Of a stretch of DNA of 64,000 nt, positions 6,663-56,758 are shown one piece after another. The position numbers and the translations under genes are program-made. Position 1 is the stretch's first letter; every line of letters begins with the position of its first letter. The notes beneath the pieces are model-generated. The model searched no databases. It was not told where the DNA came from and worked only from the letters and a program-made list of their open reading frames with translations. This stretch comes from Pseudomonadales bacterium (lineage in GTDB: Bacteria; Pseudomonadota; Gammaproteobacteria; Pseudomonadales; Azotimanducaceae): the NCBI GenBank assembly GCA_965267195.1, contig OZ253942.1, positions 3,270,310-3,334,309 on the forward strand, in the 5' to 3' direction.

Positions 6663-7196
6663 ATGTCACGTATTGCTAATAACCCAGTATCGATCCCCAA
6701 GGGTGTTGAGATTTCCATCAGCGGCCAGGATCTGAACGTTAAAGGTTCTAAGGGCAATTTGTCTTTGACCATGCATGAGTTGGTTGAGATTTCCCAGGAA
6801 GAAGACACGCTGAAGCTGAAGGCAACTGAGAACTCCAAGAAGTCTGTTGCGCTGGCTGGAACTTTCCGCTCACTAGTTAACAACATGGTGACTGGCGTCA
6901 GCGATGGGTTCACTAAAGAACTGGAGCTGCAGGGCGTTGGTTATCGTGCTCAGGCTCAGGGTAAGAAACTGAATCTGTCACTTGGCTTCTCTCACCCGGT
7001 TGTTTACGAAGCACCTGAAGGCATTGAGATCGAAACACCAAGCCAGACTCAGGTCATTGTGAAGGGTATCGACAAGCAGCTGGTAGGCCAGGTATCTGCA
7101 GAGATTCGTGCCTTCCGTCCGCCAGAGCCTTACAAGGGCAAAGGTGTTCGATACGCAGATGAGTACGTGAAGCGCAAAGAAGCGAAGAAGAAATAA
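6663..7196 (+). CDS. rplF: 50S ribosomal protein L6
   Basis: 177 aa with N-terminus [16 protein letters not shown]. Confidence 0.98.
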
Positions 7197-7210
7197 TTAG
7201 GTTTATAGCT

Positions 7211-7561
7211 ATGGACAAGAAAAAAGCAGCCCGATTGAAGAGAGCAAAGAGAGCTCGCATGCATATCCGCGAGCTGGAAATGCCACGCTTGTGTGTATAT
7301 CGCTCACCGCGACATATCTATGCCCAGATTATCTCGGCTTCTGGCGAGCAGGTTCAGGCATCTGCGTCTTCGCTCGATCCAGAACTGCGTGGTGACAACA
7401 AAGGTAACGCGCAGGACGCGGCCAAAGTTGGCGCCAAAATCGCTGAGAAGGCAAAAGCAGCGGGTATCGAGAAGGTCGCATTTGACCGATCCGGTTACCA
7501 GTATCACGGCAGGGTCAAGGCTTTGGCCGATGCTGCGAGAGAAGGTGGTTTGCAGTTCTAA
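7211..7561 (+). CDS. rplR: 50S ribosomal protein L18
   Basis: 116 aa; C-terminus [19 protein letters not shown] is typical of L18. Confidence 0.97.
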
Positions 7562-7592
7562 GAACTGTAAAAGGAATCATTGAGGAAAAGTA

Positions 7593-8096
7593 ATGGCTTA
7601 TAACGAGCAGGACAACGAAGAAGGCATCCAGGAAAAACTGGTACAGGTAAACCGGGTAGCCAAAGTCGTTAAAGGTGGTCGAATCTTCGGTTTCACTGCG
7701 CTGACTGTAGTGGGCGATGGTAATGGTCGAGTGGGATTTGGTCGCGGCAAGGCTCGCGAGGTTCCTCTGGCGATTCAGAAAGCTATGGAAGCAGCTCGTC
7801 GCAACATGATCAGTGTTGACCTGAAGGGTTCAACCATTCAGTACCCGATCACAGGTCGTCACGGCGCCTCCAAGATTTACATGCAGCCTGCATCTGAAGG
7901 TACAGGAATCATTGCCGGTAAGACGATGCGTGCGGTACTCGAAGTGGCAGGTGTTCATGACGTTCTGGCCAAGTCTTACGGTTCAACCAACCCGGTAAAC
8001 GTTATCCAGGCGACTTTCAAAGGTCTGCAGGACATGCGTTCTCCGGAAAGTGTCGCTGAGAAGCGCGGCAAGACAGTCGAAGAAATTACGGGTTAA
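7593..8096 (+). CDS. rpsE: 30S ribosomal protein S5
   Basis: 167 aa, S5-like ([23 protein letters not shown]). Confidence 0.98.
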
Positions 8097-8101
8097 TCAC
8101 A

Positions 8102-8287
8102 ATGGCTGCGAAGAAGATCAAAGTTACTCAGACAAAAAGCACAATTGGTCGCCTTAAATCTCACAAGGCGTGTATTGCTGGTCTGGGTCTGAGAAGAATC
8201 AGACATACAGTAGAAGTGGAAGACACTCCTGCAGTTCGGGGCATGATCAACAAAGTGTCCTACATGGTAAGTGTCGAGGAAGGTTAG
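8102..8287 (+). CDS. rpmD: 50S ribosomal protein L30
   Basis: 61 aa, lies between S5 and L15, typical L30 sequence. Confidence 0.95.
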
Positions 8288-8289
8288 TC

Positions 8290-8724
8290 ATGCAACTGAA
8301 TACATTGAAGCCAGGGGCGGGTAGCCGCAGTCCTCGCAAGCGAGTTGGTCGTGGTATCGGCAGCGGTCTGGGTAAGACCTGTGGCCGTGGTCACAAGGGT
8401 CAGAAGTCTCGATCCGGTGGTCGAATTCGACGAGGTTTTGAAGGTGGTCAGCAGCCTCTGCAGATGCGTTTACCAAAGTTTGGTTTCAACTCTGCCAAGG
8501 CAAGGATCACAACTGAAGTGACACTGTCTGAACTGGCAAAAGTTGATGCAGACGTTATCGACGTACAGGCATTGATCGACGCAGACGTCATCAAGGGCAC
8601 GATGAAGCGCGCCAAGGTGATTCTGTCTGGAAGCATCGACAAAGCAGTCACTCTGAAAGGCATCCGTGCCACCAAGGGTGCGAAAGAAGCGATCGAAGCC
8701 GCTGGCGGCAAGGTCGAAGAGTAA
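8290..8724 (+). CDS. rplO: 50S ribosomal protein L15
   Basis: The tracked ORF 8170..8724 runs through rpmD. The ATG at 8290 ([13 protein letters not shown]...) gives the normal 144-aa L15. Confidence 0.95.
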
Positions 8725-8757
8725 GAACTTTAGAAGTTAAAGAGTAACGATAAGAGC

Positions 8758-10089
8758 ATGAGCAGTTCTGTAGCAGATAGAGCAAACGCCATGATGGCGG
8801 GAGGAGGCTTGTCCGAGTTGTGGGCAAGACTGCGCTTTGTGCTGCTCGCGATTATTGTTTATCGAATTGGCAGCCACATCCCATTGCCAGGCATTAACCC
8901 AGATCGCCTTGCAGCTCTGTTCGATCAGAACCAGGGCGGCATTCTTGATCTGGTCAACATGTTCTCGGGCGGCGCCATCGAGCGTATGAGTATTCTTGCG
9001 CTTGGAATCATGCCCTACATTTCGGCATCGATTATTTCGAACCTGATTGTTGCAACCACGCCATCGTTGCAGCAGCTCAGGAAAGAAGGTGAAGCAGGAC
9101 GTCGTAAGATCGCCCAGTACACGCGTTACGGTACGTTGCTTCTGGCGACCATCCAGGGTTTCGCGATGAGTAATGGTCTCGCGTCCCAGGGTCTGGCTTA
9201 TGCCCCAGATTTTGCTTTCCATTTCGTTGCCATTACGACATTGGTTACGGGAGCCATGTTTATGATGTGGCTGGGTGAGCAGGTGACTGAACGTGGTATC
9301 GGTAACGGTATCTCTATTCTGATTTTCACCGGTATTGTTGCGGGATTCCCAAGTGCTATTGGCCAGTCATTTGAACAGGCTCGCCAGGGTGAGATTTCGA
9401 TCATTGCACTGTTGCTGATTGCAGCCATTGCGATTGCCATTGTGGGCTTCGTTGTTTTCATCGAGCGCGGTCAGAGAAGAATCACTGTGAACTACGCCAG
9501 GCGTCAGCAGGGCAGACAGCAGTATGCGGCGCAAAGCAGCCACTTGCCTCTGAAGATCAACATGGCTGGTGTTATTCCGGCGATCTTTGCAAGCAGCCTG
9601 TTGTTGTTCCCGGCATCCATTGGTCAGTGGTTCGGTCAGTCGCCAGGTATGGAGTGGTTGCAGGACCTGAGTCTTTTGATTGCACCAGGCCAGCCGCTGA
9701 ATGTGATCCTGTTTTCATTGGGCATTATTTTCTTCTGCTTCTGGTATACGGCAATCATGTTTAACCCGAAGGAAGTAGCGGACAACCTGAAAAAGTCAGG
9801 CGCATTTATCCCAGGATTCCGTCCTGGTGATCAAACCGCTCGACACATTGATACGATTTTGACGCGACTCACGCTGGTGGGTTCGCTTTACATGACGGCT
9901 GTGTGCCTGCTGCCACAGTTCCTGATTCTGCAGTTCAACATTACCTTCCAGCTTGGAGGTACAGCGCTGCTGATCGTGGTGGTTGTCGTCATGGATTTTA
10001 TGGCGCAGGTGCAGACACATTTGATGTCTCATCAGTATGAATCTCTGATGAAGAAATCGAATCTGCAGAATTTTGGTACAAGACGCTAA
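8758..10089 (+). CDS. secY: preprotein translocase subunit SecY
   Basis: 443 aa, polytopic, SecY-like sequence at the canonical end of the spc operon. Confidence 0.98.
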
Positions 10090-38009: not shown

Positions 38010-38519
38010 TTGCGGCTCTTCGGTATCCTGCTGATCCTCCTCGTCGCCGGATGTGCGACCGTCAAAGATGCACCACCACCCTCTGATCGCTTCTGGCAGA
38101 TGAAAGGCAAACTGTCTGTCAGTTTCGATGGCAAAACACGGGTTGTGAGCATGGATTGGCGCCAATCAGGTGACACCAGTGCGATAGCGTTACAGGGCCC
38201 GTTTGGTTCTGGTGAGGCGAATCTCTCGGTCACCAAGGACGAAATTTGGGTGGATACCGGAGACGGTGCCAGGCGTTTTGGACCGGATCAGCTGATCCAG
38301 CTCTATGACCGCAGCCTGGATCTGCCGTGGCATAACCTTTCCTATTGGGTGAGGGGTAAGAAAGGACCGTCGGGTGAGCGAATTTCAGCGGAATTTGAGT
38401 ATGGGGAGTGGCGAATTCGGATCATCAGGGAAAACGCTGAAGGGCCGGAATTGATGGCATTTGAACACCCGGAAATCGCCCTTAGATTAAGGGTTCAGAG
38501 CCTCACGGGTAACATTTGA
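38010..38519 (+). CDS. lolB: outer-membrane lipoprotein LolB
   Basis: 169 aa. The TTG start abuts the upstream stop. Lipobox LVAGC, LolB-like sequence and position. Confidence 0.85.
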   Translation: MRLFGILLILLVAGCATVKDAPPPSDRFWQMKGKLSVSFDGKTRVVSMDWRQSGDTSAIALQGPFGSGEANLSVTKDEIWVDTGDGARRFGPDQLIQLYDRSLDLPWHNLSYWVRGKKGPSGERISAEFEYGEWRIRIIRENAEGPELMAFEHPEIALRLRVQSLTGNI

Positions 38520-38544
38520 CACATGCCCGTCTGATCAGCACAAT
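38516..38544 (+). promoter_or_regulatory. candidate sigma70 promoter for tRNA-Gln
   Basis: TTGACA (38516-38521, overlapping the lolB stop), a 17-nt spacer and CACAAT (38539-38544). A GC-rich discriminator AGCGCCC follows, about 15-20 nt before the tRNA 5' end. Confidence 0.4.
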
Positions 38545-38565
38545 AGCGCCCTTTTTTCGCCATAT

Positions 38566-38642
38566 TGGGGTGTCGCCAAGTTGGTAAGGCAACGGGTTTT
38601 GATCCCGTCATTGCGCAGGTTCGAGTCCTGCCACCCCAGCCA
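38566..38642 (+). tRNA. tRNA-Gln (anticodon UUG), CCA encoded
   Basis: 77 nt. The acceptor stem is TGGGGTG/CACCCCA, the anticodon stem ACGGG/CCCGT carries loop TT-TTG-AT, and the T-arm is GGTTCGAGTCC. Near-identical architecture to E. coli tRNA-Gln. Confidence 0.95.
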
Positions 38643-38686
38643 TTTCGCAATCCCAGAAGAACAATAAAAACCTGGAAAAACACCAA

Positions 38687-39655
38687 ATGGCTGAGCTAAA
38701 GATATTTACAGGGAATGCCCACAGGGCATTGGCGACTCGAGTCGTAGATCGACTTCGAATGGATCTGGGCGCGGCTGATGTGGGTCAGTTCAGCGACGGT
38801 GAAATCGCTGTAGAAATACACGAAAACGTTCGTGGTAAGGATGTCTTCATCATCCAACCCACATGTGCACCCACGAACGACAACTTGATGGAATTGGTCA
38901 TTATCGCGGACTGCTTGCAACGAGCATCAGCGGCGAGAGTGACGGCGGTCATACCGTATTTCGGATATGCCCGCCAGGATCGTCGCGTACGATCTGCGAG
39001 GGTGCCGATTACCGCAAAAGTTGTGTCGGACATGCTGGGCAGTGCTGGGATTAATCGCGTGCTAACGATTGATCTGCACGCGGATCAGATCCAGGGATTC
39101 TTCAGTATCCCGGTGGACAACATTTATGGTTCCCCGGTGTTGCTCATGGACATCGAGCGACAGAAGTATGACGACCTGATGATTGTCTCTCCAGACGTCG
39201 GAGGGGTTGTCAGGGCAAGAGCGATGGCGAAGCAGCTCGATGATGCGGATCTCGCGATTATCGACAAGCGGCGACCAGAAGCGAACGAATCAGAGGTCAT
39301 GCACATCATCGGTGATGTTCAGGGCCGAACCTGTCTCCTCGTGGATGACATGGTGGATACCGCGGGTACTTTGTGTGCCGCAGCGGGAGCGCTGAAAGAA
39401 AACGGCGCGAAGAAAGTAGTGGCCTACTGTACGCATCCGGTTTTGTCCGGTCCGGCCATCGAAAGAGTTAACAGTTCACCTCTGGATGAACTGGTTGTTA
39501 CAGATACGATTCCGCTGAAACCAGAAGCAGAGGAGTCACCGAAAATTCGTCAGTTAAGTATTGCTGACGAGCTTGCTGAGTCGATACGTCGAATCAGTAA
39601 CGAAGAGTCGCTAAGCGCGCTCTTCAAAAAGCGGATTCAACCTGCGCTGTTTTAA
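38687..39655 (+). CDS. prs: ribose-phosphate pyrophosphokinase
   Basis: 322 aa, collinear with Prs ([29 protein letters not shown]). Confidence 0.98.
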
Positions 39656-41078: not shown

Positions 41079-42170
41079 ATGGGTTTTAACTGCGGCATTG
41101 TTGGTCTGCCCAACGTTGGCAAATCTACCTTGTTTAATGCACTGACTCGAGCAGGCGTTGGTGCCGAAAACTTTCCTTTCTGCACGATTGAGCCGAACTC
41201 GGGAATCGTGCCGATGCCGGATCCGCGCCTCGATAAGCTCGCTGGCATTGTGTCTCCCGAAAAAGTTATCCCAACGACCATGGAATTTGTGGATATTGCT
41301 GGTCTGGTAAAAGGTGCCTCAAAAGGGGAAGGCCTGGGAAACCAGTTTCTCGCCAATATCCGTGAAACGGATGCTATTGCACATGTCGTGCGTTGTTTCG
41401 AAGATGAAAATGTCACACACGTGGACAACCGGATTGACCCGGCTGCGGATATTGAAGTGATCAACACAGAGCTTCAGCTTGCTGACCTTCAGACCATCGA
41501 AAACGGCATCAACCGGGTTTCGCGAGTCGCTAAAAGTGGCGACAAAGAAGAACTCGCCAAAGTGCAGTATCTCGAAAAGCTGCAGGCGCACATCGACGAA
41601 GGCAAACCTGCTAGAACGTTTGAAACGACATCCGACTTTGCCGATGTGCTGCACAACCTTCATCTGTTGACCATGAAGCCGGTGCTCTACATTGCCAATG
41701 TGGATGAAGATGGCTTTGAAAATAATCCTCACCTCGACGTGGTTCGTGAAATCGCAGCGTCCGAGAATGCCGAGGTGGTTGCCATCTGCAACAAGCTCGA
41801 AGCAGAAATCGTTGAATTGGATGACGAAGAGCGAGCTGAGTTTCTTGCTGATCTGGGTATGGAAGAGCCGGGTCTCGATCGTGTGATCAGGGCAGGATAT
41901 CGCCTCCTGGGTCTACAAACCTATTTCACAGCCGGTCCGAAGGAAGCTCGCGCATGGACGGTTCGTGCAGGATCCAGCGCACCTCAAGCGGCTGCGGTGA
42001 TCCATACGGATTTTGAGAAAGGATTTATCCGGGCAGAAGTCATTTCTTATGATGACTATGTTGAACACGGTGGTGAGAATGGCGCCAAAGAAGCGGGAAG
42101 ATGGCGTCTGGAAGGTAAGGACTACGTCGTCCAGGATGGCGACGTAATCCATTTCCGGTTTAACGTTTAA
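41079..42170 (+). CDS. ychF: redox-regulated ATPase YchF
   Basis: 363 aa with G1 GLPNVGKST, a TGS-like C-terminus and a conserved pth-ychF pairing. Confidence 0.98.
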
Positions 42171-42764
42171 TCAGTTGCGAAACTTCTTCGCTAGCCAGTA
42201 GTCAACGCTGACGTATCGACCACCGCCCAGGAAAAACAGCGCCAGCAACATGATGAAGTAGGTTGCGGCGAATTCGATTCCGTTGTTCAGCACAACAAAG
42301 CTGCCGTTCTCGGTAAGCCAGCTGTAGTTACCATGTTCCCTGAGAATGTCTTTTGCGCGATCCAAGCGATCTATAGCGCCTATCGTTCTGTCGGTTGCGA
42401 AAATACCGCTGCCGGTTGAGATCGCCAGCCAGCCGTTATGCCAGTGAGCAGTGAACATAGCGACCAGCATGGTGAACATCAGTGGAATCGAAATCCAGCG
42501 AGTCGCAAAACCCAGTACCAACAGAAAAGCGCCAACTAGCTCCGCGCTGGTGGCCAGAAATGCCATCAGCCAGGGCATGGGGAGACCCAGGCCCCAGTCC
42601 GGATTACCGAACCACGCAACGGTGTTCTCGAATCCGTTGTACTTGTTGATACCCGCCATATAAAACACCGGAGCCAAATAAGCACGGAGTAACAGTGGCG
42701 CAATAAAGTCAGCTTTGAATGTCAGTTCCAGCCAATCCTGGAATTTGTTGATCAATGCAATCAT
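42171..42764 (-). CDS. DoxX-family integral membrane protein, last gene of the MNIO operon (BufD/HvfX-like position)
   Basis: 197 aa with ~4 TM segments and a DoxX-like pattern. Lies 15 nt downstream of the DUF2063 gene on the same strand. Confidence 0.8.
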   Translation of the reverse strand: MIALINKFQDWLELTFKADFIAPLLLRAYLAPVFYMAGINKYNGFENTVAWFGNPDWGLGLPMPWLMAFLATSAELVGAFLLVLGFATRWISIPLMFTMLVAMFTAHWHNGWLAISTGSGIFATDRTIGAIDRLDRAKDILREHGNYSWLTENGSFVVLNNGIEFAATYFIMLLALFFLGGGRYVSVDYWLAKKFRN

Positions 42765-42779
42765 GGTTTCCTCGTCCTT

Positions 42780-43517
42780 CTAGTTGAAGGTAAATACTCT
42801 GTATTGGTTAAAAGACTGAATCAGAGCTAATCCGTTACGCACAAACTCATCTTTTTCTTGTACGCCGAATTCATCAGCTTTCTCCTGCAGCCAATCAGCA
42901 GGTACTAACCCCTCTGTCTGCTGCATGTCATTGAGCAGATGAAATGCAAGGGGTTGTAACTCGAAGAATCTCACCGACTCATCCGGGATCCTGCAGACCA
43001 GCAGATAGGTCGGAGTGTCGCCCGGTGCAGTTGGCTGGAATTCCGGACTGATTCGATGGACCGGATAGTTGTAAGCGAGTGGTTGTGCCAGGGGGCTAAG
43101 ACTTAGCTGCAGATGTCCAATGTCACCTTCGAGTTCATCCGGTTGCTCTTCGTCCATGGTGAATAGCGCAAGTTCAACCCACTCATAATGCGCCAGCTCT
43201 GTCAGATAGTCGGGCAGATCAGCGCTTAACTGTGCATGCGCCAGGTATTCCACGAATTCCCCGGATAGCGCCATGAAATAGGGTGTTTGGGATTCGTGTG
43301 AAATAAAGAAATTACGAACCATGACCTGCCAGGCATCGTCGGAAACGATGCTTTTGATCACTGGAAAGAAGTCACCCAGTAATGAGGAAACGTTGTTAAA
43401 AATGAGTTCTGAATAAACGCCCATGCGTCGCTCATCGAGCCCTTCAGGAACGGGTACATGGTCCGGATCTCTCAGGTGTTCGGTGAACGCTTTTTGTAGT
43501 TTTGTCAGTTCACCCAT
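42780..43517 (-). CDS. DUF2063-family MNIO partner protein (MbnC/BufC/HvfC-like)
   Basis: 245 aa. The N-terminal LQKAFTEHLRDP...RMGVYSELIFNNVSSLLGDFFPV is typical of DUF2063. Starts 5 nt after the DUF692 gene. Confidence 0.8.
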   Translation of the reverse strand: MGELTKLQKAFTEHLRDPDHVPVPEGLDERRMGVYSELIFNNVSSLLGDFFPVIKSIVSDDAWQVMVRNFFISHESQTPYFMALSGEFVEYLAHAQLSADLPDYLTELAHYEWVELALFTMDEEQPDELEGDIGHLQLSLSPLAQPLAYNYPVHRISPEFQPTAPGDTPTYLLVCRIPDESVRFFELQPLAFHLLNDMQQTEGLVPADWLQEKADEFGVQEKDEFVRNGLALIQSFNQYRVFTFN

Positions 43518-43522
43518 ATCTG

Positions 43523-44356
43523 TCAGTCCTGGCAGGCCGATTGCCTCTGCTTGATCATGTCGACTTCAAGCAACAGGGTTTCGAGACTGGGGATATTGAA
43601 ATCTCGCTCGAGTAGCGTCGGTCGATCGCCGATCAGTGCATAGGTCTCCTCGAGCAGTGACCAGACAGGATCAATGACATCAGCGCCATGGGTATCGACA
43701 ATCAGACCATCGTCTTCGACGTAATGTCCTGCGATGTGCAGGTAACTGATTCGGTCAGCGGGCATCGCACGAATGAAGTCCATCGGTTCACCACCATGAT
43801 TCACGCTGTTGACGTAAACATTGTTCACGTCCAGCAGTAGATCACAGTCAGCTTCTTCTATGACAGCACGCACAAACTCGGCTTCCTCGAGTTCGCGTTT
43901 TGGTGTCAGGTAGTAAGACACATTTTCCAGCGCCATTCGTTCGCCGATGATGTCTTGAACACGTTTTACCCTATCTGCGGTATAGGTGACCGCTTCTTCG
44001 GTAAACGGCATCGGGAGTAGATCATAGAGCTGACCACCGTCGTTGGTGTAAGACAGATGTTCGCTGTAGATGGCGACATTATGTTTCTGGATGAAGTCCC
44101 TGGTGTCCGTGACTAGCTGCTCATCAAGCGGGGCAGGTCCCCCGATCGATAGTGATAAGCCGTGACATACGATCTGTTTTTGCTCACTGATCTCGCGAAG
44201 TTGTCGACCCAGTCGACCGCCAAGACCAATCCAGTTTTCGGGAGCCAGCTCAAAAAAATCGACGGATTCAGGGATGCCGTTCGTCAGGAGCTCTGGTGTC
44301 ATGGAACGACGCAGGCCAATGCCAGCGCCAGAAACAGGGTGAATATGTGAGTGCAT
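43523..44356 (-). CDS. DUF692-family multinuclear non-heme iron oxidase (MNIO; MbnB/BufB/HvfB-like)
   Basis: 277 aa. Family motifs are present in order: GIGLR, HGLSLSIGG, SEHLS, LLPMPFT, ALENVS, LLLDVNNVYVN, HIAGH, IVDTHG, TLLERD. Together they cover the TIM-barrel metal ligands. Confidence 0.88.
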   Translation of the reverse strand: MHSHIHPVSGAGIGLRRSMTPELLTNGIPESVDFFELAPENWIGLGGRLGRQLREISEQKQIVCHGLSLSIGGPAPLDEQLVTDTRDFIQKHNVAIYSEHLSYTNDGGQLYDLLPMPFTEEAVTYTADRVKRVQDIIGERMALENVSYYLTPKRELEEAEFVRAVIEEADCDLLLDVNNVYVNSVNHGGEPMDFIRAMPADRISYLHIAGHYVEDDGLIVDTHGADVIDPVWSLLEETYALIGDRPTLLERDFNIPSLETLLLEVDMIKQRQSACQD

Positions 44357-44369
44357 GGGGGAAAGGAAA

Positions 44370-44394
44370 CGGTCCCTGCCTAGGGCAGGGACCG
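44370..44394 (-). promoter_or_regulatory. intercistronic stem-loop between precursor and MNIO genes
   Basis: Perfect 11-bp GC-rich inverted repeat CGGTCCCTGCC / GGCAGGGACCG with a 3-nt centre. On the minus strand it is followed by TTTCCTTTCCCCC and then the MNIO ATG. Confidence 0.6.
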
Positions 44395-44429
44395 TAGGGT
44401 TACAACATTATGGTTTGATGTAATTGAGG

Positions 44430-44816
44430 TTAAGCAGCGCCGCCGCACTTACCTTCACCACACTTACCTTCGCCGCCAGCTTTCTCGCCGCCGCACTTGC
44501 CTTCACCACATTTGCCTTCGCCGCACTTACCTTCGCCTCCAGCTTTTTCGCCGCCGCATTTGCCTTCACCGCATTTGCCTTCGCCGCACTTGCCTTCGCC
44601 TTCAGCTTTTTCGCCGCCGCACTTACCTTCGCCGCATTTGCCTTCACCACACTTGCCTTCGCCGTGGCCACCGGCAACCTGCATGTAGCCGCCCTGGAGT
44701 TCAGTCATACCGAATGGGTTGGTGTCCGCAATGGCCATGGGCGACAGCGCCAGGCTAGCTCCAAGAGCGGTACCAACTGCGATGGAAAGGGTCTTCTTTG
44801 TGTTCTTGGGTGTCAT
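44430..44816 (-). CDS. secreted Cys-rich repeat precursor (11 x EGKCG), putative MNIO substrate / metallophore protein (HvfA-like)
   Basis: 128 aa. GAGGA sits 8 nt before the ATG. The Sec signal is MTPKNTKKTLSIAVGTALGASLALSPMAIA|D. All 11 Cys lie in EGKCG units, and the gene lies immediately upstream of the DUF692 gene. Confidence 0.85.
   Translation of the reverse strand: MTPKNTKKTLSIAVGTALGASLALSPMAIADTNPFGMTELQGGYMQVAGGHGEGKCGEGKCGEGKCGGEKAEGEGKCGEGKCGEGKCGGEKAGGEGKCGEGKCGEGKCGGEKAGGEGKCGEGKCGGAA
44442..44660 (-). repeat. in-frame nested tandem repeat (15-nt EGKCG unit inside a 63-nt 3-unit+linker period)
   Basis: The layout is 3+3+3+2 EGKCG units separated by GEKAEG / GEKAGG linkers. 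The units differ only at synonymous third positions (GGC/GGT, TGC/TGT, AAG/AAA). Confidence 0.95.
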
Positions 44817-45044
44817 GTAAAACGTCCTCTAGTTGATTTGTCCGCCGATACCACTCCTGGTAAGTCGGCCAGCTTTCATACAGATCAGTTAATGATCCTG
44901 TGTAATAAGACCTGTCATATGGACAGATGGTTTCATAGAGAAAACCACGATCGAAACGTTACAGCAATCTGCGAAAAACTGGTATGGCTGAACGTCTGGT
45001 TCAGGGAGGATTCAGTTTGAGGGACGTTTTGTAAGGATCTACTT

Positions 45045-45082
45045 ACAAAAAAGGCCGCAACCATACTGGATGGCGCGGCCTT
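45045..45082 (-). terminator. Rho-independent terminator of the EF-G paralog gene
   Basis: On the minus strand AAGGCCGC...GCGGCCTT forms the stem, with an inner CCAT/ATGG extension. TTTTTTG follows, 20 nt after the stop at 45102. Confidence 0.8.
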
Positions 45083-45101
45083 CATTGAGAGCTTTGCTGG
45101 G

Positions 45102-47183
<2,082 letters not shown>

Positions 47184-47326
47184 CACAATGGCTCGTGTCT
47201 AAGTTCATTTCATATGTTCGGGTAGTCCAGGGAGACCCTGGCGAGGGGGCCAAAAACACCGAAATTCAGGTGTTTTCGCGCGCGCATCATATATCAACGC
47301 CCAGTCATGTTCCAGATGGGTTTCTT

Positions 47327-47382: not shown

Positions 47383-49860
47383 TTAGTTGCCGAATCGATA
47401 TCTAAGCTTGACCACAAAAGAGTCGACCTGGGGGTCGTCAAGGGTGTCACTGAACAGGTCCGAAAAGCTGTCTTCCTGGCGTGGCGCCAGCCGATTACCG
47501 CGGTTGTAGACCACAAACAGGTCGGTCAGCGGCGCGATTTCCCATCGATATCGCAGCTGCGCGGTGAGCAGACTGACGGTGAAATCATGGTCGGGCAAGG
47601 TTGGATTCGCGGGGATGAGTTCGCCGTCCCCTGGAGGGACCGCATAGAACCCCTGTTCATCGGCACGGACACCAGCCCACTGCAGAGAGAATCGAAGCTG
47701 ATGCCGGGGCGCCATAAACCAGTTGGCTTCGATCTTGGGCTGCCAGTCGATGGCATCGTAAGCGCCGAAGTTGTTGCGACCCTGGTAGACCAGCCAACCA
47801 TCGCGGCGCTTGTACTTCACATCAAGCTTCATCTCCAGGTTAGGTGTGGGTCTTGCGGTGACACCCATTGAATACTGCTGCGTCCAGTCGCCCAGATCTT
47901 CCTGAAGGCCTCCGATGCTAAACGACCAGGTCAGCATTTTGCTGGCATCTGTCGTCCACAATATGTTCCACCAGACCCTGTCCTCCGCTTTGTAGGCGCC
48001 ATTACCTCTTGAGTCGATGTCCTCGTATCTTTCCGGCAGGTAGGCCAGTGCAGTTTGAAAGGTATTCCTCCCCGGGATCTCGATTCTGTTGCGCCAGTAA
48101 ATTCCGCTATCAACGACCTGACCTTTACTGATGTTGTATTGCTGGCGGACGGTGACGGCGCCGCGGAATGCTTTCAGGTAAGCATCGGGTGCTGCGTGCG
48201 CATAGCGAAAGATGTACTGCAGACCGCCATAGTCATTTCGCCGGAGAAAACCCAGGTCATTGATCTCGACCTCTTCGTCGAAGTAATCCAATTCAACTTT
48301 GTGCTGGAACCTTGAGCTGGGCGCATAGGTCACATCGACCAAAGCGCCTTGACCTGTGATGTCATCGACATCGCTGTGCATCAGTTGAAGATCGGTACTC
48401 CATCGGCCATCGCTGGTGCCGAAGTGCGCATCGAGTCCGTGTACGGAGGCATCGTAGATCGGACCCTGGGTGAAGGTTCCTAGGTATCCGATGGCATAGC
48501 GGTTGCGCTCCGATCTTTCATAGCTCACCCGCGCGACGGCAAAGTCTCGACCATCATCTTCAATGTCGACTTCGTTGCCACTCAGATCAATGCCAAGCCA
48601 CTCCACATCATCTTCGAATGCAGCCAGCATGCCGTATCTGAGATCACCACTCTGTCCCGTGGTCTTGATGGCACCGAGCAGATCCGTTGGCAGGCCGGGT
48701 TCCCCTCGCTTGGGAATCACACCAGGTTCGAGCGTAACCTGGGTGGCGGTGCCACCGATGCGACGGGTGTTTAACAGGGAGATAGGCGGCTGAACAAAGT
48801 CGCTCACGAAAACTCTGCGGGATGTGGTCGCGAAGTTTTCGTTGGTCACTTCTCGAAGGGCGTTGCCACTGTTTGCGCGTGGTGTGGTGACAAAAATTTC
48901 ATTGCCTTCCAGGAAAAACAGACGTTTCTCCGGGAAGAAGGTTTCGAATGCCGTGAGGTTGAGCACGACGTTATCAGCTTCTACTGCGCCAAAGTCCGGA
49001 TTGAGGCTTGCGGTGAGTTCTAGACGAGATGACGGTTTCCAGGTGATGTCAGCGCCAACGTTCAATTCGTTTTCATCGCGCGCGTTATCCACTTCATCAG
49101 AGATATAAGGAATGAACGAGAAAGACTGTCTCGGCTCAACACCTTCGAGGTGCATGGTATTTAGAGCGGTAACAAATTGTGGCGATGAGTAAGTGTGACC
49201 CGGCCAGTAGTAGCGTTCGTTTTTGAACGACACGGTTCTGCTGAGGGCGAAACCTACCTGCCGGGTGCCCGATTGCTCAGGCAGGCTCATCATCGACCAG
49301 GGGTAAAAGATCTCAACACTCCAGCCGTCCTCATTGATGGCCGACTTGTATAGCCAGGGTCCGTCCCAGTCGCTTGAATAACGACGCTCCGGCAAAACCT
49401 TGCCGTCCATGACCACGTCTCCGGGACTCAGGGAAAACCAGAAGGCATAGGTGCCGTCACCGGTGGGATCTATGGTGACGCCGAATGAGTCTCTGTCTGA
49501 TTGCTGGTCCCGCTTCGTCATTCGATGGACGACGGTGTCCGGCGGCTGGTACATGATCGAACTGATGAACAGACCTTTCTCCGTCGCCAGCAGGCGGTTC
49601 TCCGTTTTGTATTCTCCAGGGTCACCGGTCGCAGGTACGGATACCAGCATGTTGTCGAACCAGGGCACCTCTTGCCAGATGGCTTCATCAACGATGCCAT
49701 CCAACTGAATCTCTACGTCTTCATGAGGCCGCGTCTGTACACTGATGTAGTGCATGGGAATGCCATCCAGCTCACCCTTGAGTTCCTGCTGGCCTCGAGG
49801 TGATTCCGCCTGGGCTACTGCACAAGCGATCAATAGAGCCATGATGAGTTGAATACGCAT
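47383..49860 (-). CDS. large secreted/outer-membrane protein, CBM9/DOMON-like N-domain plus DUF5916-like beta-rich body
   Basis: ~825 aa. The signal peptide MRIQLIMALLIACAVAQA|E appears from the ATG at 49860; the tracked GTG at 49926 adds 22 non-signal residues. The N-terminal D/W-rich module (WQEVPWF..., DGWSVEIFYPW) is followed by long beta-strand-like alternation. The family assignment is from memory. Confidence 0.65.
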   Translation of the reverse strand: MRIQLIMALLIACAVAQAESPRGQQELKGELDGIPMHYISVQTRPHEDVEIQLDGIVDEAIWQEVPWFDNMLVSVPATGDPGEYKTENRLLATEKGLFISSIMYQPPDTVVHRMTKRDQQSDRDSFGVTIDPTGDGTYAFWFSLSPGDVVMDGKVLPERRYSSDWDGPWLYKSAINEDGWSVEIFYPWSMMSLPEQSGTRQVGFALSRTVSFKNERYYWPGHTYSSPQFVTALNTMHLEGVEPRQSFSFIPYISDEVDNARDENELNVGADITWKPSSRLELTASLNPDFGAVEADNVVLNLTAFETFFPEKRLFFLEGNEIFVTTPRANSGNALREVTNENFATTSRRVFVSDFVQPPISLLNTRRIGGTATQVTLEPGVIPKRGEPGLPTDLLGAIKTTGQSGDLRYGMLAAFEDDVEWLGIDLSGNEVDIEDDGRDFAVARVSYERSERNRYAIGYLGTFTQGPIYDASVHGLDAHFGTSDGRWSTDLQLMHSDVDDITGQGALVDVTYAPSSRFQHKVELDYFDEEVEINDLGFLRRNDYGGLQYIFRYAHAAPDAYLKAFRGAVTVRQQYNISKGQVVDSGIYWRNRIEIPGRNTFQTALAYLPERYEDIDSRGNGAYKAEDRVWWNILWTTDASKMLTWSFSIGGLQEDLGDWTQQYSMGVTARPTPNLEMKLDVKYKRRDGWLVYQGRNNFGAYDAIDWQPKIEANWFMAPRHQLRFSLQWAGVRADEQGFYAVPPGDGELIPANPTLPDHDFTVSLLTAQLRYRWEIAPLTDLFVVYNRGNRLAPRQEDSFSDLFSDTLDDPQVDSFVVKLRYRFGN

Positions 49861-49990
49861 TGAATTTATTCTGAGTGAGTCACTAACCCCCGTCCACGAA
49901 CATAGTTTTACGTTATGCCGTGCCACCGTGGTGTGATCTGTGTCAGTTGTTGAACTGGATTAATGAGTGATTTTCAGTAACCTGCGCCGC

Positions 49991-52570: not shown

Positions 52571-53617
52571 ATGCGGACCGTCTTTCCGATGATTCCCGTC
52601 GCCAATAGTCGAGTGATTGCGAGCTTGCTGCTCGCGGTATCGATTCTGCTTGTTCAAAATACTTTTGCCGCAGAGGCTCGCCCCGTGCGCATTACACAGG
52701 TAGCGCAGGAGCCGGTGAGCAGAACGATCAGTACTTTCGGTGTTCTGGCACCCAGGGTTGAAGATCTCTCTTTTAGAACTCGTGGCCGAATCGCTGCGTT
52801 CAATGTCATTGAAGGGCAGCGAGTCCAAAAGGGTCAGGAACTGGCCATCCTGGAAACCCAGAATGCAGAAGACGCGCTTAATCAGTCACGAATTCGCTTT
52901 GAGCAGGCATCAAGACAGTTAGAGCGGTTCGAGAAGTTGGCAGAAGAAAACATGATCCAGGAATCTCAGCTGGAACAGGCCATTGGTGAGATGGAATCGG
53001 CGACCATTGCACTACAGCAGGCGGAACTGGAGCTCGATCGATGTACGCTTCGCGCACCCGCAGAAGGCGTGATATTAAAAGAGTATCTAGATTCCAGAAC
53101 GACCGTCGCTGCAGGGCATCCCATCTATTCGTTTCGTGATGCCTCAAGACCCTGGATTACTGAGGTTGAACTGACGGACCAGAACGCTTTTATTTTTGGG
53201 CTGGGTGCTACAGCACAGGCTCGCTTTGCGCCTTACCCTGGAGAGACATTTGCAGGGACGCTCACCAAGCAGGCTGGCATCGCTGACAAGAACAACGGGC
53301 TCTATACCGTTGAAATCACGATCGACACGCAGGGCAGAGAGCTCAGACCCGGCATGGTGGTTGAAGTTGATCTCCTGCACGAAACTGAAGAGACGTTCAG
53401 CACAGTTCCCCTGGATGCTTTGGTGGATGTGCGTGGTCATCGCGGTGTGATTTATCTGTTAGACGAAGAAGATAGTCGAGCAAGAGAAATTCCCATTCAT
53501 ATTGTTGCCATTACTGGGGGCAGCGTGGCGATCGCTGAACCAATTCCGGCAGGTACCAGTGTCGTGGTTCGCGGGCAGCAGAGTCTGCGCGACATGACGC
53601 CGGTCAAGGTCATCTGA
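52571..53617 (+). CDS. RND efflux periplasmic adaptor (membrane fusion protein)
   Basis: 348 aa with a signal/anchor, a coiled-coil hairpin region and a beta-barrel C-terminus. Lies directly upstream of the RND permease. Confidence 0.88.
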   Translation: MRTVFPMIPVANSRVIASLLLAVSILLVQNTFAAEARPVRITQVAQEPVSRTISTFGVLAPRVEDLSFRTRGRIAAFNVIEGQRVQKGQELAILETQNAEDALNQSRIRFEQASRQLERFEKLAEENMIQESQLEQAIGEMESATIALQQAELELDRCTLRAPAEGVILKEYLDSRTTVAAGHPIYSFRDASRPWITEVELTDQNAFIFGLGATAQARFAPYPGETFAGTLTKQAGIADKNNGLYTVEITIDTQGRELRPGMVVEVDLLHETEETFSTVPLDALVDVRGHRGVIYLLDEEDSRAREIPIHIVAITGGSVAIAEPIPAGTSVVVRGQQSLRDMTPVKVI

Positions 53618-53632
53618 GGCTGAGTTAGGGTT

Positions 53633-56600
53633 ATGCGAGCCATCATCGAGTTCGTGGTGACCAATCGTCTGTTTACGATCCTATTTATGTTTGTTGTCGT
53701 GCTTGCGGCACTGACGAACCTCCCCAATCTTCGAATCTCGCAGCTGCCAACGGTAGAGATGCCGACGCTTCTTATAGACGTTGCTTTGCCTGGAGCTTCC
53801 GCCCACGAAATTGAACAGCGCGTGATCAATCCGGTTGAAGAAAAGCTGGAAACCACGCGAGAGTTAAACCGGTTCGAAACCTCCATTTCGAACAGCCGTG
53901 CCAACATCCTGATGGAATACAGTCATGGTGTGGATATTGATGACGAGTACGTAGACATCAATTCCAAGATCAACAACATCATGGCGGAGCTGCCGGACGA
54001 AACAGAGATCACCGTATCCAAACAGAGCCCGATCGACATCATTGTGTCTTTTGTTGTTGCGGTGGTTTCGAACACCGCCACAGACTCTGAGCGAGTCACT
54101 GTTGCGGAAGAGCTGAAAAGAAAACTTCGTGACGTACCCAACCTGGCTGAAGTTGAGCTGATGAAGCCGGAGCAGGAAATTCGTGTGGAGCTGGATCTGG
54201 CCCGACTGCATCGATACGGCATCGATGTCGCGCAGGTGCATCAGGCGATTCAAGGAAATAACCGTTTCCTCCCTACAGGCACCTTCGAGCTGGGTGACAA
54301 GGCGATATCGGTCCTGGCATTCAGCGGTGGCTATAAGTCCCTTGATGCATTGCGTGACACGATGCTGATCTCAAATACCGGTAGTGCACTCGCGCTCCGG
54401 GATGTCGCAACGGTCACACAGGCGATCGATAAAGACGCGCTGCGAACCCGGGTTGATGGGGCGTCGGCCACGATGATTACGATGAAGATGTCTGCTGATG
54501 CGAACGTCTTCACGCTTCGCGATCAGATTGTTCAGGTCATCGACGGCATGCAGGATGACTTGCCCGTGGATATACGGATCGAGTGGCTTTTTGATGTGGC
54601 TGATGGCGTCGACTTCAAGCTGCGAGAGCTGCTCACCAACATCATGCAGGGGATTATCATCCTGACGCTGGTCCTGTTGTTCTCTGTGGGTTGGCGCTCC
54701 GGCTTGATCATCGCCATGATGCTGCCGATCTCCTTGTTGCTTTCAGTGGTGGGTCTGTCTGCTACTGACTATGGGATTCAGGAAATCTCGCTGGCGGGAT
54801 TTGTTATCTCGTTAGGACTGATTGTTGATAACGGTATTGTTGTCGGTGAGAACGTTTCCAAAAATGAGGCCTATCGAGGCATGAACAGTATGGAAGCCGC
54901 CATCGACGGTGCTTCCTCTGTGATGTCCCCACTGTTATCGGCAACAGCAACCACGGCACTCGCATTTGCACCACTTTTTCTGCTGACTTCGCCTACAGGG
55001 CTTTTCCTGCACAGCATGGTGGCCACCATCTGGCTTTGCCTTGCGGCTTCCCTGATTTCAGCGGTGCTGTTTTCAACCATGCTGATGTCTCGGTTTGGAA
55101 CTCGGCAAGGCATAGCGGGCTTACCCAATCCACCGAGTTTCCTGACGTATCTGACGCCGATTCGTGACGGTATCTATATTCGAGTATTGCGGCACCTGGT
55201 GCTGCATCCCTGGCAGTTATTTGGTGGGGTAGTGGTGCTGCTTATCTTCACGGGGATTCTGGCCTCTCGCTTGGAAGTCATTGTTTTTCCTGACAGTGAA
55301 GATCCCTTCTTTACAGTCACCATAGAAGCACCTGCAGACCGGAGCCGCGACTTTGTCGATAACCTGACCATGGATGTGCGGCAGGTGGTTGCCGAAGAAA
55401 CCAATGTTGATCACTGTGGCACGGTTGTTGGGGGAGGGTTTCCCTTTGTTCATACGGGAATCCAGAACTCCGGCACGGGGCGAAACAATGCCACGCTGTT
55501 TTGCACGGTGAACTTTCGCAACAGTGATGAAATTACAGCCCTGACCAATCGCATCAACGCCAAGCTCGCGAATCGTGTCGCTGATGCCAATATTCTTGCG
55601 ACGCCGATGGTACTCGGTGGGGAACCTGGTTTTTCAGATGTTCAGATTCATATCACCGGACCTCGAATTGAATTGGTGCGTGAGCAGGCTCGGCAGTTCG
55701 GTGAATACTTTGCTGAACAAGAGCTGGAAGGAATTCTGCATATTGATAACCCGGCTAGTTCTCGCTGGTATGCCGTTGATGTCAGCTTCAAAGAGCGAAC
55801 CGCGAATGCAGTTGGCGTCACCCGCAGCCAGGTTGATCAAATGTTGGTGCTGCTGACCTTCGGTGCAGAGGTAGACACCTATCGTGACAATGACGGTAAT
55901 GATTTTCCGATCATGCTGCGCGCCAACTCTGATGTATCAGATCCATTCTCTGTATTCGATCGTGTATTTATTCCATCAACTACCGGTGAGCAGATCCCGC
56001 TTTCCCAGGTCATCGAATACAAGTTCGTAGAAGATGAATATGACATTCGCCATGACATGTTCCAGCCGGAAGTGAAGATTGGAATAACCGCTCAGCCTTA
56101 TTACCCGGTTCCAAAACTCACCCAGGAAGTGGCCAAGACTGTTGAAGCCTATGAACTGCCGGAAGGCTACAGCTTTGATATCAGGGGTGAAGTGGCGAAT
56201 ACAGAAAAAGCGTTCAGTGGAGCAGGTCGTAACCTTGGTCTGGTGTCTTTGGTGGTGCTCGCCATCTTTGTGCTTCAGTTTAAGTCCTTGCTGCAACCGG
56301 CGATCATCCTGGTGGCGATTCCCCTCAGCTTTATTGGTGCTTTCATTATGTTGTTCCTGACGGGGCAGCCAATTTCATTCCTGGCCTTCATCGGTCTTAC
56401 CAGTCTTATGGGGATCGTGATCAACAACAGCATTTTGCTGGTGGATGAAGGGAACCAGTTGCGTGCGTTGAAGCCTGATGAACCACTACTCGAGATTGCC
56501 ATTACTGCGGGCGTGAATCGCTTTATGCCTATTGTGCTGACGTCAGTGACCAGTATCTTTGGACTATTACCGCTGGCGCTGGGTAACTCCATGTTTAAGG

Positions 56601-56758
56601 GGTTGGCAGTGGTGATCATCGGTGGCCTTACTACATCGACCTTCCTGACACTTCTCTGTGTGCCGGTGCTCTATTCACTTCTAACCCGGTCAGCGCCCAC
56701 TGTTTCTGTTACCGAAGGTTGGTCCGGCCGATCCGAGCTTGGGGAAGTCACTGACTGA
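53633..56758 (+). CDS. RND efflux permease (AcrB/AcrD/AcrF superfamily)
   Basis: 1041 aa with 12-TM RND topology and two large periplasmic loops. Confidence 0.93.
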   Translation: MRAIIEFVVTNRLFTILFMFVVVLAALTNLPNLRISQLPTVEMPTLLIDVALPGASAHEIEQRVINPVEEKLETTRELNRFETSISNSRANILMEYSHGVDIDDEYVDINSKINNIMAELPDETEITVSKQSPIDIIVSFVVAVVSNTATDSERVTVAEELKRKLRDVPNLAEVELMKPEQEIRVELDLARLHRYGIDVAQVHQAIQGNNRFLPTGTFELGDKAISVLAFSGGYKSLDALRDTMLISNTGSALALRDVATVTQAIDKDALRTRVDGASATMITMKMSADANVFTLRDQIVQVIDGMQDDLPVDIRIEWLFDVADGVDFKLRELLTNIMQGIIILTLVLLFSVGWRSGLIIAMMLPISLLLSVVGLSATDYGIQEISLAGFVISLGLIVDNGIVVGENVSKNEAYRGMNSMEAAIDGASSVMSPLLSATATTALAFAPLFLLTSPTGLFLHSMVATIWLCLAASLISAVLFSTMLMSRFGTRQGIAGLPNPPSFLTYLTPIRDGIYIRVLRHLVLHPWQLFGGVVVLLIFTGILASRLEVIVFPDSEDPFFTVTIEAPADRSRDFVDNLTMDVRQVVAEETNVDHCGTVVGGGFPFVHTGIQNSGTGRNNATLFCTVNFRNSDEITALTNRINAKLANRVADANILATPMVLGGEPGFSDVQIHITGPRIELVREQARQFGEYFAEQELEGILHIDNPASSRWYAVDVSFKERTANAVGVTRSQVDQMLVLLTFGAEVDTYRDNDGNDFPIMLRANSDVSDPFSVFDRVFIPSTTGEQIPLSQVIEYKFVEDEYDIRHDMFQPEVKIGITAQPYYPVPKLTQEVAKTVEAYELPEGYSFDIRGEVANTEKAFSGAGRNLGLVSLVVLAIFVLQFKSLLQPAIILVAIPLSFIGAFIMLFLTGQPISFLAFIGLTSLMGIVINNSILLVDEGNQLRALKPDEPLLEIAITAGVNRFMPIVLTSVTSIFGLLPLALGNSMFKGLAVVIIGGLTTSTFLTLLCVPVLYSLLTRSAPTVSVTEGWSGRSELGEVTD

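Follow-up and report, generated by a model that had tools for sequence, protein, structure and literature searches.

A probable EGKCG/oxazolin-type captophorin cluster, hvfABCX, in an uncultured marine member of the Pseudomonadales

The hvfABCX genes and their products

The stretch of DNA analyzed here, referred to as the window, is 64,000 nucleotides long (contig OZ253942.1, assembly GCA_965267195.1) and comes from an uncultured marine gammaproteobacterium of the Pseudomonadales/OM182/"Ca. Azotimanducaceae" group. Four co-directional open reading frames (ORFs) are found on its minus strand between positions 44816 and 42171, separated by gaps of 73, 5, and 15 nt. They encode a Cys-rich precursor of the HvfA family, the MNIO enzyme HvfB, its partner HvfC, and the membrane protein HvfX. 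As judged from these sequences and by analogy to characterized relatives, the locus is very probably a four-gene captophorin cluster of the EGKCG/oxazolin type, hvfA-hvfB-hvfC-hvfX, which would produce an exported, Cys-modified, copper-binding peptide. An earlier sequence-only reading of the same DNA had described the four ORFs, and the lengths, the order, and the spacing of 5–73 nt that it gave match the ORF listing exactly.

The gene products were assigned to families with the curated NCBIfam models and their cut-offs, and with Pfam. The hvfA-family precursor gene (44430–44816, minus strand) encodes 128 aa that score 62.9 bits on the repeat-domain model NF050137, the cut-off of which is 19.5. 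The 277-aa product of hvfB (43523–44356, minus strand) scores 411.9 bits on NF003818 (cut-off 360) and 333.5 bits on PF05114, which bears out its identification as a DUF692/MNIO protein. The hvfC gene (42780–43517, minus strand) begins 5 nt past the hvfB stop and encodes a DUF2063 partner of 245 aa with a recognition element for RiPPs (peptides that ribosomes make and that are modified post-translationally); it scores 263.3 bits on NF050145 (cut-off 142) and matches PF09836 and PF22106. Finally, hvfX (42171–42764, minus strand) encodes a DoxX-family membrane protein of 197 aa with hydrophobic segments, which scores 243.4 bits on NF050144 (cut-off 80) and 80 bits on PF07681. The sequence-only reading had named the third and fourth genes as the DUF2063 partner and the DoxX protein, had placed the whole in the precursor-DUF692-DUF2063-DoxX type of the hvf and bufferin operons, and had proposed hidden Markov model searches as a check. 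In these searches the HvfB, HvfC, HvfX, and HvfA-family repeat-domain models were all matched above cut-off, and the curated models together with Pfam support the operon type at the family level. With the curated models now available, automatic annotation would give all four genes their names.

Membership in two related classes of cluster was considered and rejected. A Buf1 bufferin cluster does not fit: the precursor has no Pfam domain and hence no DUF2282, and HvfB reaches 261 bits on the BufB model NF050167, below its cut-off of 310. For a methanobactin cluster, HvfB scores 50.9 bits on the MbnB model TIGR04159, for which the cut-off is 325, the partner is a DUF2063 protein, and no transport genes are adjacent.

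The seven metal-ligand motifs of the DUF692 family are all present in HvfB and occur in the order that the sequence-only reading had reported. Their computed positions are HGLSLS at 65–70, SEHLS at 98–102, ENVS at 144–147, DVNNVYVN at 176–183, HIAGH at 207–211, DTHG at 221–224, and LLERD at 248–252. The whole length of HvfB can be aligned with the MNIO of Histophilus somni (Protein Data Bank code 3BWW; E = 1.6e-72), and the ligand motifs fall on each other, but the window protein lacks an insert of roughly 20 residues that 3BWW has between HIAGH and DTHG. The 3BWW protein is 72% identical to the characterized HvfB and is the structural reference for it; in HvfB, the site-3 ligands N175, D242, and H244 are essential, and the active cofactor is a mixed-valent diiron center that forms only with HvfC present (bioRxiv 10.64898/2026.07.17.739211). 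When placed through the 3BWW alignment, the equivalents of the site-3 ligands are kept as the N in DVNN and the D and H in DTHG.

The precursor and its EGKCG repeats

The precursor begins with a predicted Sec signal peptide (residues 1–30), consisting of a Lys-rich n-region and a hydrophobic core at residues 10–30, with cleavage predicted between AIA and DT. The segment DTNPFGMTELQGGYMQVAGGHG comes after the signal peptide and before the repeats, and a conserved NPFGMTELQGGYMQVA segment is found between the signal peptide and the EGKCG units. The mature precursor of 98 residues contains 37 Gly, 16 Glu, 14 Lys, and 11 Cys. A listing of the Cys positions (56, 61, 66, 77, 82, 87, 98, 103, 108, 119, and 124) confirmed the earlier claim of a secreted precursor with 11 Cys that each sit in a perfect EGKCG unit. 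The units are arranged 3+3+3+2, with GEKA(E/G)G spacers between the groups. At the DNA level, this region is a tandem repeat array within hvfA (44441–44663, minus strand) with 3.5 copies of a 63-nt unit and an 89% match, where one 63-nt unit corresponds to one 21-aa cassette of three EGKCG units.

A scan of a genome collection with HvfB gave more than 500 relatives, and 80 related loci were screened for a precursor. The sequence-only reading had named conservation of the frame in relatives as a point on which its account could fail. A precursor upstream of hvfB is kept in frame in 63 of the 80 loci, with 2–13 Cys, and across these 63 loci both the signal peptide and an NPF..EL..GYMQ segment are conserved. 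In the closest relative (96% identical) the precursor has 2+2+2+2 units as compared with 3+3+3+2 here, and an alignment with three relatives (L001, L005, and L002) shows in-frame insertions and deletions through which whole EGKCG units are gained or lost. Runs of at least three EGKCG units occur in six of the 63 loci, and runs of 3–5 units are also present in the homologues P0036, P0009, and P0005. A 3+3+3+2 grouping of the units is a minor variant. The number of Cys is indeed larger than the six of Haemophilus HvfA, as the sequence-only reading had pointed out, but it is not exceptional, given the 2–13 Cys of the relatives, the runs of 3–5 units in other homologues, and the up to 58 Cys known from the literature.

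For FonBC, the substrate rules are a minimum of two units in tandem, a small residue (Gly) following the Cys, and neither Pro nor a charged residue next to the Cys (PMC13097082). The window precursor agrees with these rules, as every Cys is in a K-C-G context and the units form runs of two or three.

A protein search with the precursor gave 6738 homologues at E ≤ 1e-5, some of which carry the NCBI name "HvfA family ... RiPP metallophore." The best protein match, P0001 (195 aa), continues past the repeats with ~60 C-terminal aa that are not repetitive; this tail looks like the result of a frameshift or a read-through gene call and not like a genuine extension. In three of the related loci (L031, L043, and L056) the precursors contain EF-hand-like calcium-binding segments (e.g. 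DANKDGK.SKEEF) between the Cys motifs; such a fusion of EGKCG and EF-hand segments has already been described as "type 2" (PMC12452194). At one locus where HvfB is 73% identical (L013), two precursor screens found no precursor.

Expression signals and chromosomal setting

A GC-rich intercistronic hairpin of 12 bp, nine of which are G-C, is situated directly 3' of the hvfA stop (44369–44395, minus strand) and is followed by a weak T/C tract. Its folding energy is -27.3 kcal/mol (z = -7.0), and none of 200 shuffled sequences was equally stable. Eight relatives (L001–L005, L007, L008, and L017) have an equivalent hairpin at this place, with another sequence. The hairpin probably acts as a partial terminator or mRNA stabilizer that favors the precursor mRNA over the enzyme mRNA. 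Shine-Dalgarno sequences of the form AGGA/GAGGA precede hvfA, hvfC, and hvfX, and the one of hvfA (GAGGA) is good.

Upstream of hvfA, about 120–145 nt from the ATG, there is a candidate promoter of the type used by extracytoplasmic function (ECF) sigma factors, TGTAAC-N18-TCTAT (44935–44963, minus strand). A degenerate TGTAAC/TCTAT pattern has this single match in the 64-kb window. Of the 14 closest loci, 10 carry the pattern upstream of hvfA; its elements are both kept, and its spacer is variable. This enrichment is overstated because the pattern was derived after the data had been seen. By its resemblance to the geometry of ECF-sigma promoters, transcription probably starts at this site, with the sigma factor encoded elsewhere. 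The homologous bufferin operons of Caulobacter are driven by sigmaF at GTAACC-N16-CGAA (PMC3511200), a site of similar geometry. In the related loci, a search for the corresponding motif, GTAAC-N16-19-CGAA, gave no match upstream of the precursors, and a consensus scan of the minus strand upstream of hvfA gave no sigma-70 promoter.

Directly after the candidate -10 element lies the block ATGAAACCATCTG-N9-CAGGTCT (44908–44936, minus strand), which is invariant in all seven aligned relatives. It contains a small CTG..CAG stem with two compensatory pairs. The block is a putative operator or 5'-leader element. A small upstream ORF that starts at the invariant ATGAAACC was rejected as a gene, as its length is not conserved and it stops after five codons in L007; that its third codon positions do not vary suggests a constraint at the nucleotide level. 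The fold of the leader is no better than that of shuffled sequences (z = -1.3), and alifold gives two short stems only. Rfam has no meaningful riboswitch or other known RNA match on 44300–45150 at E ≤ 10, and over the whole window at gathering thresholds it reports one tRNA only. Further upstream, between the terminator of the EF-G (elongation factor G) gene and the candidate promoter, is the perfect palindrome TGTAAG-N6-CTTACA (45030–45047, minus strand). This is the single match in the window, where 0.08 would be expected by chance, and L001, L004, and L007 keep the half-sites with a varying spacer. The palindrome may be an operator, i.e. the binding site of a regulator.

The nearest relatives of HvfB, the closest at 96% identity, come from marine metagenome-assembled genomes of Pseudomonadales, OM182, and "Ca. 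Azotimanducaceae." The gene order EF-G/hvfABCX/ychF-pth-rplY-prs is kept in nine relatives (L001–L008 and L017), in which the identity of HvfB goes down to 66%, and the G+C content is flat over the locus (0.49–0.54). Because the operon has the same position in nine genomes and shows no G+C anomaly, it is an old resident of the lineage, and a recent horizontal insertion was rejected. The sequence-only reading was right about the flanks, prs-rplY-pth-ychF (with rplY/ctc) on one side and EF-G on the other, but its description of the operon as an insertion between them is misleading. In L017, the chromosomal position is kept (hvfC at 6837–7568 and ychF at 7776–8864), and there is no hvfX match between the two genes. 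In the window, the stop of ychF (plus strand, ending at 42170) abuts that of hvfX (minus strand, 42171–42173) with 0 nt between the convergent genes, and there is therefore no space for the terminator of either transcript.

Among the 44 window proteins scanned, 40 of them flanking the operon, there is no ECF sigma factor, NrsF or other anti-sigma factor, copper regulator, protease, or exporter, in agreement with the earlier remark that no adjacent gene has such a role. A resistance-nodulation-division (RND) pump at 52571–56758 scores as a multidrug-type pump and not as a CusA/CzcA-type pump. The stand-alone EF-G gene (45102–47186, minus strand) matches the equivalog model for bona fide EF-G, TIGR00484, with 974 bits and closes with its own terminator, a hairpin and T-run at about 45047–45080. 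The window opens within the S10/spc ribosomal-protein operon, and the EF-G gene adjoining hvfA is for this reason presumably a second copy of fusA. Next to it, here as well as in L001, is a gene for a protein of 847 aa (47383–49926, minus strand) that matches DUF5916 only (150 bits) and no NCBIfam family. On the far side of the operon, the region 38010–38687 contains a tRNA-Gln gene (38566–38642) between prs and a weak LolB-like gene that is below the cut-off of its model. In other gammaproteobacteria, ispE is expected at the tRNA-Gln/prs position; no ispE gene was found there in the window (38010–38687).

The predicted product, its relatives, and alternative explanations

In nontypeable Haemophilus influenzae (NTHi), HvfA contains six Cys in three AEGKCGEGKCG motifs, and each Cys loses 4 Da upon modification by HvfB and HvfC; modified HvfA binds Cu(I), and more than 3,000 homologues have been noted (PMC11252979). 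A survey from 2025 counted ~2,000 proteins of 31–506 aa, with up to 58 Cys, in the precursor family "Buf_EGKCG/oxazolin," and it described core clusters in which the genes for precursor, MNIO, DUF2063, and DoxX proteins come in different orders (PMC12452194). All marine Microbulbifer have an EGKCG cluster, with 5–8 Cys, and its product bulbicupramide binds Cu(I) (PMC12538549, 2025). The captophorins were named in 2026 with more than 20,000 clusters in RefSeq, EGKCG being the commonest repeat, and oxazolin, fontiphorin, and gonophorin were found to carry 5-thiooxazoles (PMC13097082). The authors who described oxazolin have reassigned their own product from oxazolone/thioamide to 5-thiooxazole (bioRxiv 10.64898/2026.06.05.730506). 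Both 5-thiooxazoles and copper binding are on record for all four characterized EGKCG systems, oxazolin, fontiphorin, gonophorin, and bulbicupramide (PMC11252979, PMC13097082, PMC12538549). The sequence-only reading had stated that MNIOs with DUF2063 partners convert Cys into copper-binding heterocycles, and this stands; the oxazolone/thioamide structure that it gave for the HvfA product does not, as two groups have reassigned it.

The window locus resembles the oxazolin cluster hvfXABC of NTHi in its four gene families, its Sec signal, and its repeated EGKCG motif, and neither cluster includes a protease or exporter gene. They differ in that the window precursor has 11 Cys in a 3+3+3+2 arrangement, as opposed to the six of HvfA in three AEGKCGEGKCG pairs, and in that the DoxX gene follows hvfC here, whereas in NTHi, according to the locus tags, it adjoins hvfA. 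The hosts are also different, a free-living marine bacterium in one case and a pathogen in the other. The bulbicupramide cluster mmrABC of Microbulbifer (PMC12538549) shares with the window a marine gammaproteobacterial host, EGKCG cassettes, conservation within the lineage, and the lack of a nearby protease; its Cys number varies by strain (5–8), and its product has thiooxazoles and binds Cu(I). In contrast to mmrABC, the window cluster contains hvfX (a DoxX protein is mentioned nowhere in PMC12538549), its precursor has more Cys and three-unit cassettes, and its closest HvfB relatives are of the OM182/Azotimanducaceae type and not from Microbulbifer.

Fontiphorin (FonABC, Fontimonas thermophila) and gonophorin (Neisseria gonorrhoeae) are likewise made from an EGKCG precursor by an MNIO and a PME1/DUF2063 protein (PMC13097082). 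For these two, the 5-thiooxazoles and copper binding have been seen, and both are predicted for the product of the window cluster; FonA has seven modification sites, and the window precursor has eleven. The bufferins (BufABC of Caulobacter; Buf1/DUF2282 and Buf2) share the core of MNIO, DUF2063, and DoxX proteins and a precursor with a Sec signal. Their thiooxazoles, role in copper stress, and control by an ECF sigma factor (PMC12452194, PMC3511200) all have a counterpart in what is predicted for the window. However, the window precursor lacks DUF2282, the MNIO is below the BufB cut-off, and there is no adjacent sigF-nrsF pair. More distantly, the MbnABC proteins of methanobactin synthesis also use an enzyme of the MNIO family to oxidize the Cys of a ribosomal peptide to a copper-binding heterocycle. 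In that case the product is an oxazolone/thioamide and the partner is MbnC, as opposed to the DUF2063 partner here; MbnA has a short leader and core without a Sec signal and is accompanied by dedicated export and uptake genes, whereas the window precursor has a Sec signal and EGKCG repeats.

The following scheme draws on the gene identities and motifs of the window and on the fact that operon, hairpin, and promoter-like elements are conserved; it takes the chemistry, the cofactor, and the copper binding from published orthologues. HvfA would be made with its Sec signal peptide. HvfC, in a heterodimer with the TIM-barrel iron enzyme HvfB, probably uses its RiPP recognition element to bind the NPF..EL..GYMQ segment before the precursor is exported. 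Using O2 and a mixed-valent diiron center, HvfB would perform a four-electron oxidation of each EGKCG Cys. The expected product is a 5-thiooxazole with a loss of 4 Da for each Cys (at most 44 Da for the whole peptide), an alkylatable thiol, and a chromophore near 302–305 nm; it is expected because the modification of HvfA was reassigned from oxazolone/thioamide in 2026. The modified peptide would then be exported by Sec and cut by signal peptidase after AIA30. Either in the periplasm or extracellularly, its thiooxazole thiolates and nitrogen donors would sequester Cu(I), with a high affinity predicted from oxazolin, fontiphorin, and bulbicupramide. HvfX would serve as a membrane accessory protein.

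Physiological role, regulation, and transcript stoichiometry we infer as follows. Transcription would probably depend on the ECF-sigma-type promoter and a sigma factor encoded elsewhere, and the hairpin would probably allow the precursor transcript to exceed that of the enzymes. The peptide would hold about 5–6 Cu per molecule and most likely protect the cell from copper or oxidative stress. This number is obtained by applying the published model of about one Cu(I) per two heterocycles (PMC11252979) to 11 heterocycles, which gives roughly five to six Cu; the "up to 11 chelating sites" of the sequence-only reading is therefore an overstatement. EGKCG peptides may alternatively bind copper stochastically and aggregate (PMC13097082).

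Several observations weigh against this account. The precursor scores 40.3 bits on NF050188, the equivalog model of Haemophilus HvfA, below the cut-off of 95; as NF050137 was passed and NF050188 failed, it is assigned to the HvfA family and not to the HvfA equivalog. Unlike HvfA, it also lacks an N-terminal disulfide Cys pair of the C38/C43 type, which aids recognition in HvfA (PMC11252979). Three-unit cassettes give an odd number of heterocycles, a poor fit with a simple scheme of two per copper. Even for the studied members, both sequestration and acquisition are considered as roles of EGKCG peptides (PMC11252979, PMC13097082, PMC12538549). Regarding expression, no sigma or anti-sigma gene is present in the 64-kb window, and hvfB has no recognizable Shine-Dalgarno sequence, with CCTTTCCCCC ahead of its ATG. 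Together with the hairpin, the latter suggests that enzyme output is lower than precursor output.

One alternative leaves the enzymes and product as they are and changes the role. The peptide could be a chalkophore for copper acquisition, like methanobactin, or could give protection from further thiophilic metals or from oxidants (Au, Cd, Cr, peroxide). The oxazolin authors do not decide between the two roles (PMC11252979), homologous operons respond to gold, chromate, and cadmium (PMC13097082, PMC3511200), open-ocean bacteria live at very low copper so that scavenging could pay, and no copper-export or copper-sensing gene adjoins the operon. On the other hand, no TonB-dependent receptor, multidrug and toxic compound extrusion (MATE) exporter, or periplasmic binding protein of the methanobactin-uptake type is found nearby, and what induces the characterized relatives is an excess of metal or oxidative stress and not starvation (PMC12452194, PMC13097082). 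Bufferins improve growth under copper stress (PMC12452194, PMC13097082), and an ECF-like promoter fits an envelope-stress response (PMC3511200). Stress protection is favored over acquisition, and the different role is a possibility that we hold to be doubtful.

Two further alternatives concern the chemistry and the substrate. [quoted passage not shown] Two independent groups have nevertheless reassigned oxazolin, by alkylation-assisted heteronuclear multiple bond correlation (HMBC) and selective-label HNCO experiments (bioRxiv 10.64898/2026.06.05.730506, PMC13097082), and all characterized pairs of an MNIO and a DUF2063 (PME1) protein give thiooxazoles (PMC13097082). With the window enzyme also so far below the MbnB cut-off, oxazolone/thioamide pairs are very unlikely here. 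The precursor ORF might, alternatively, be a chance low-complexity frame or a decayed gene, in which case the MNIO pair would have another substrate or none. Its mature composition is extremely biased, in many databases such proteins have no label other than "low-complexity protein," and an ORF overlaps it on the opposite strand. A chance frame is at odds, however, with the GAGGA Shine-Dalgarno sequence and the canonical signal peptide of hvfA, with the conservation of frame, signal peptide, and NPF..GYMQ segment over 63 loci, with the in-frame indels by which it differs from relatives, and with the match to the curated repeat-domain model NF050137, and we regard it as extremely improbable.

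A more elaborate version of the 5-thiooxazole account, which we consider unlikely, is that this clade has a distinct form of the system, in which three-unit cassettes give another copper nuclearity or stoichiometry than the two-heterocycle Cu(I) site proposed for oxazolin and expression is under a clade-specific regulatory module. If this were true, the cassettes might form three-ligand or cluster sites, or their unpaired ligands might cross-link molecules into a copper-trapping network. The regulatory module would then comprise the TGTAAG-N6-CTTACA palindrome, the TGTAAC-N18-TCTAT element, and the invariant leader block, and its regulator or sigma factor would be encoded elsewhere.

Because the class is already well described and very common, the locus is an ordinary further member of it. 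What is mildly new is the grouping of units in threes within the cassettes, the conservation of a hairpin between hvfA and hvfB, and an ECF-like promoter that has no sigma factor gene beside it. With this locus, a RiPP class counted in tens of thousands gains an uncultured marine Pseudomonadales lineage, in which the cluster is a stable chromosomal resident beside core translation genes. The hairpin and the ECF-like promoter, which has no sigma/anti-sigma pair next to it, are testable handles on the expression of the cluster. The locus is also a natural example of a fast change in repeat number and cassette size between near-identical genomes, and as such it is of use for studying how the architecture of the cassettes determines copper stoichiometry.

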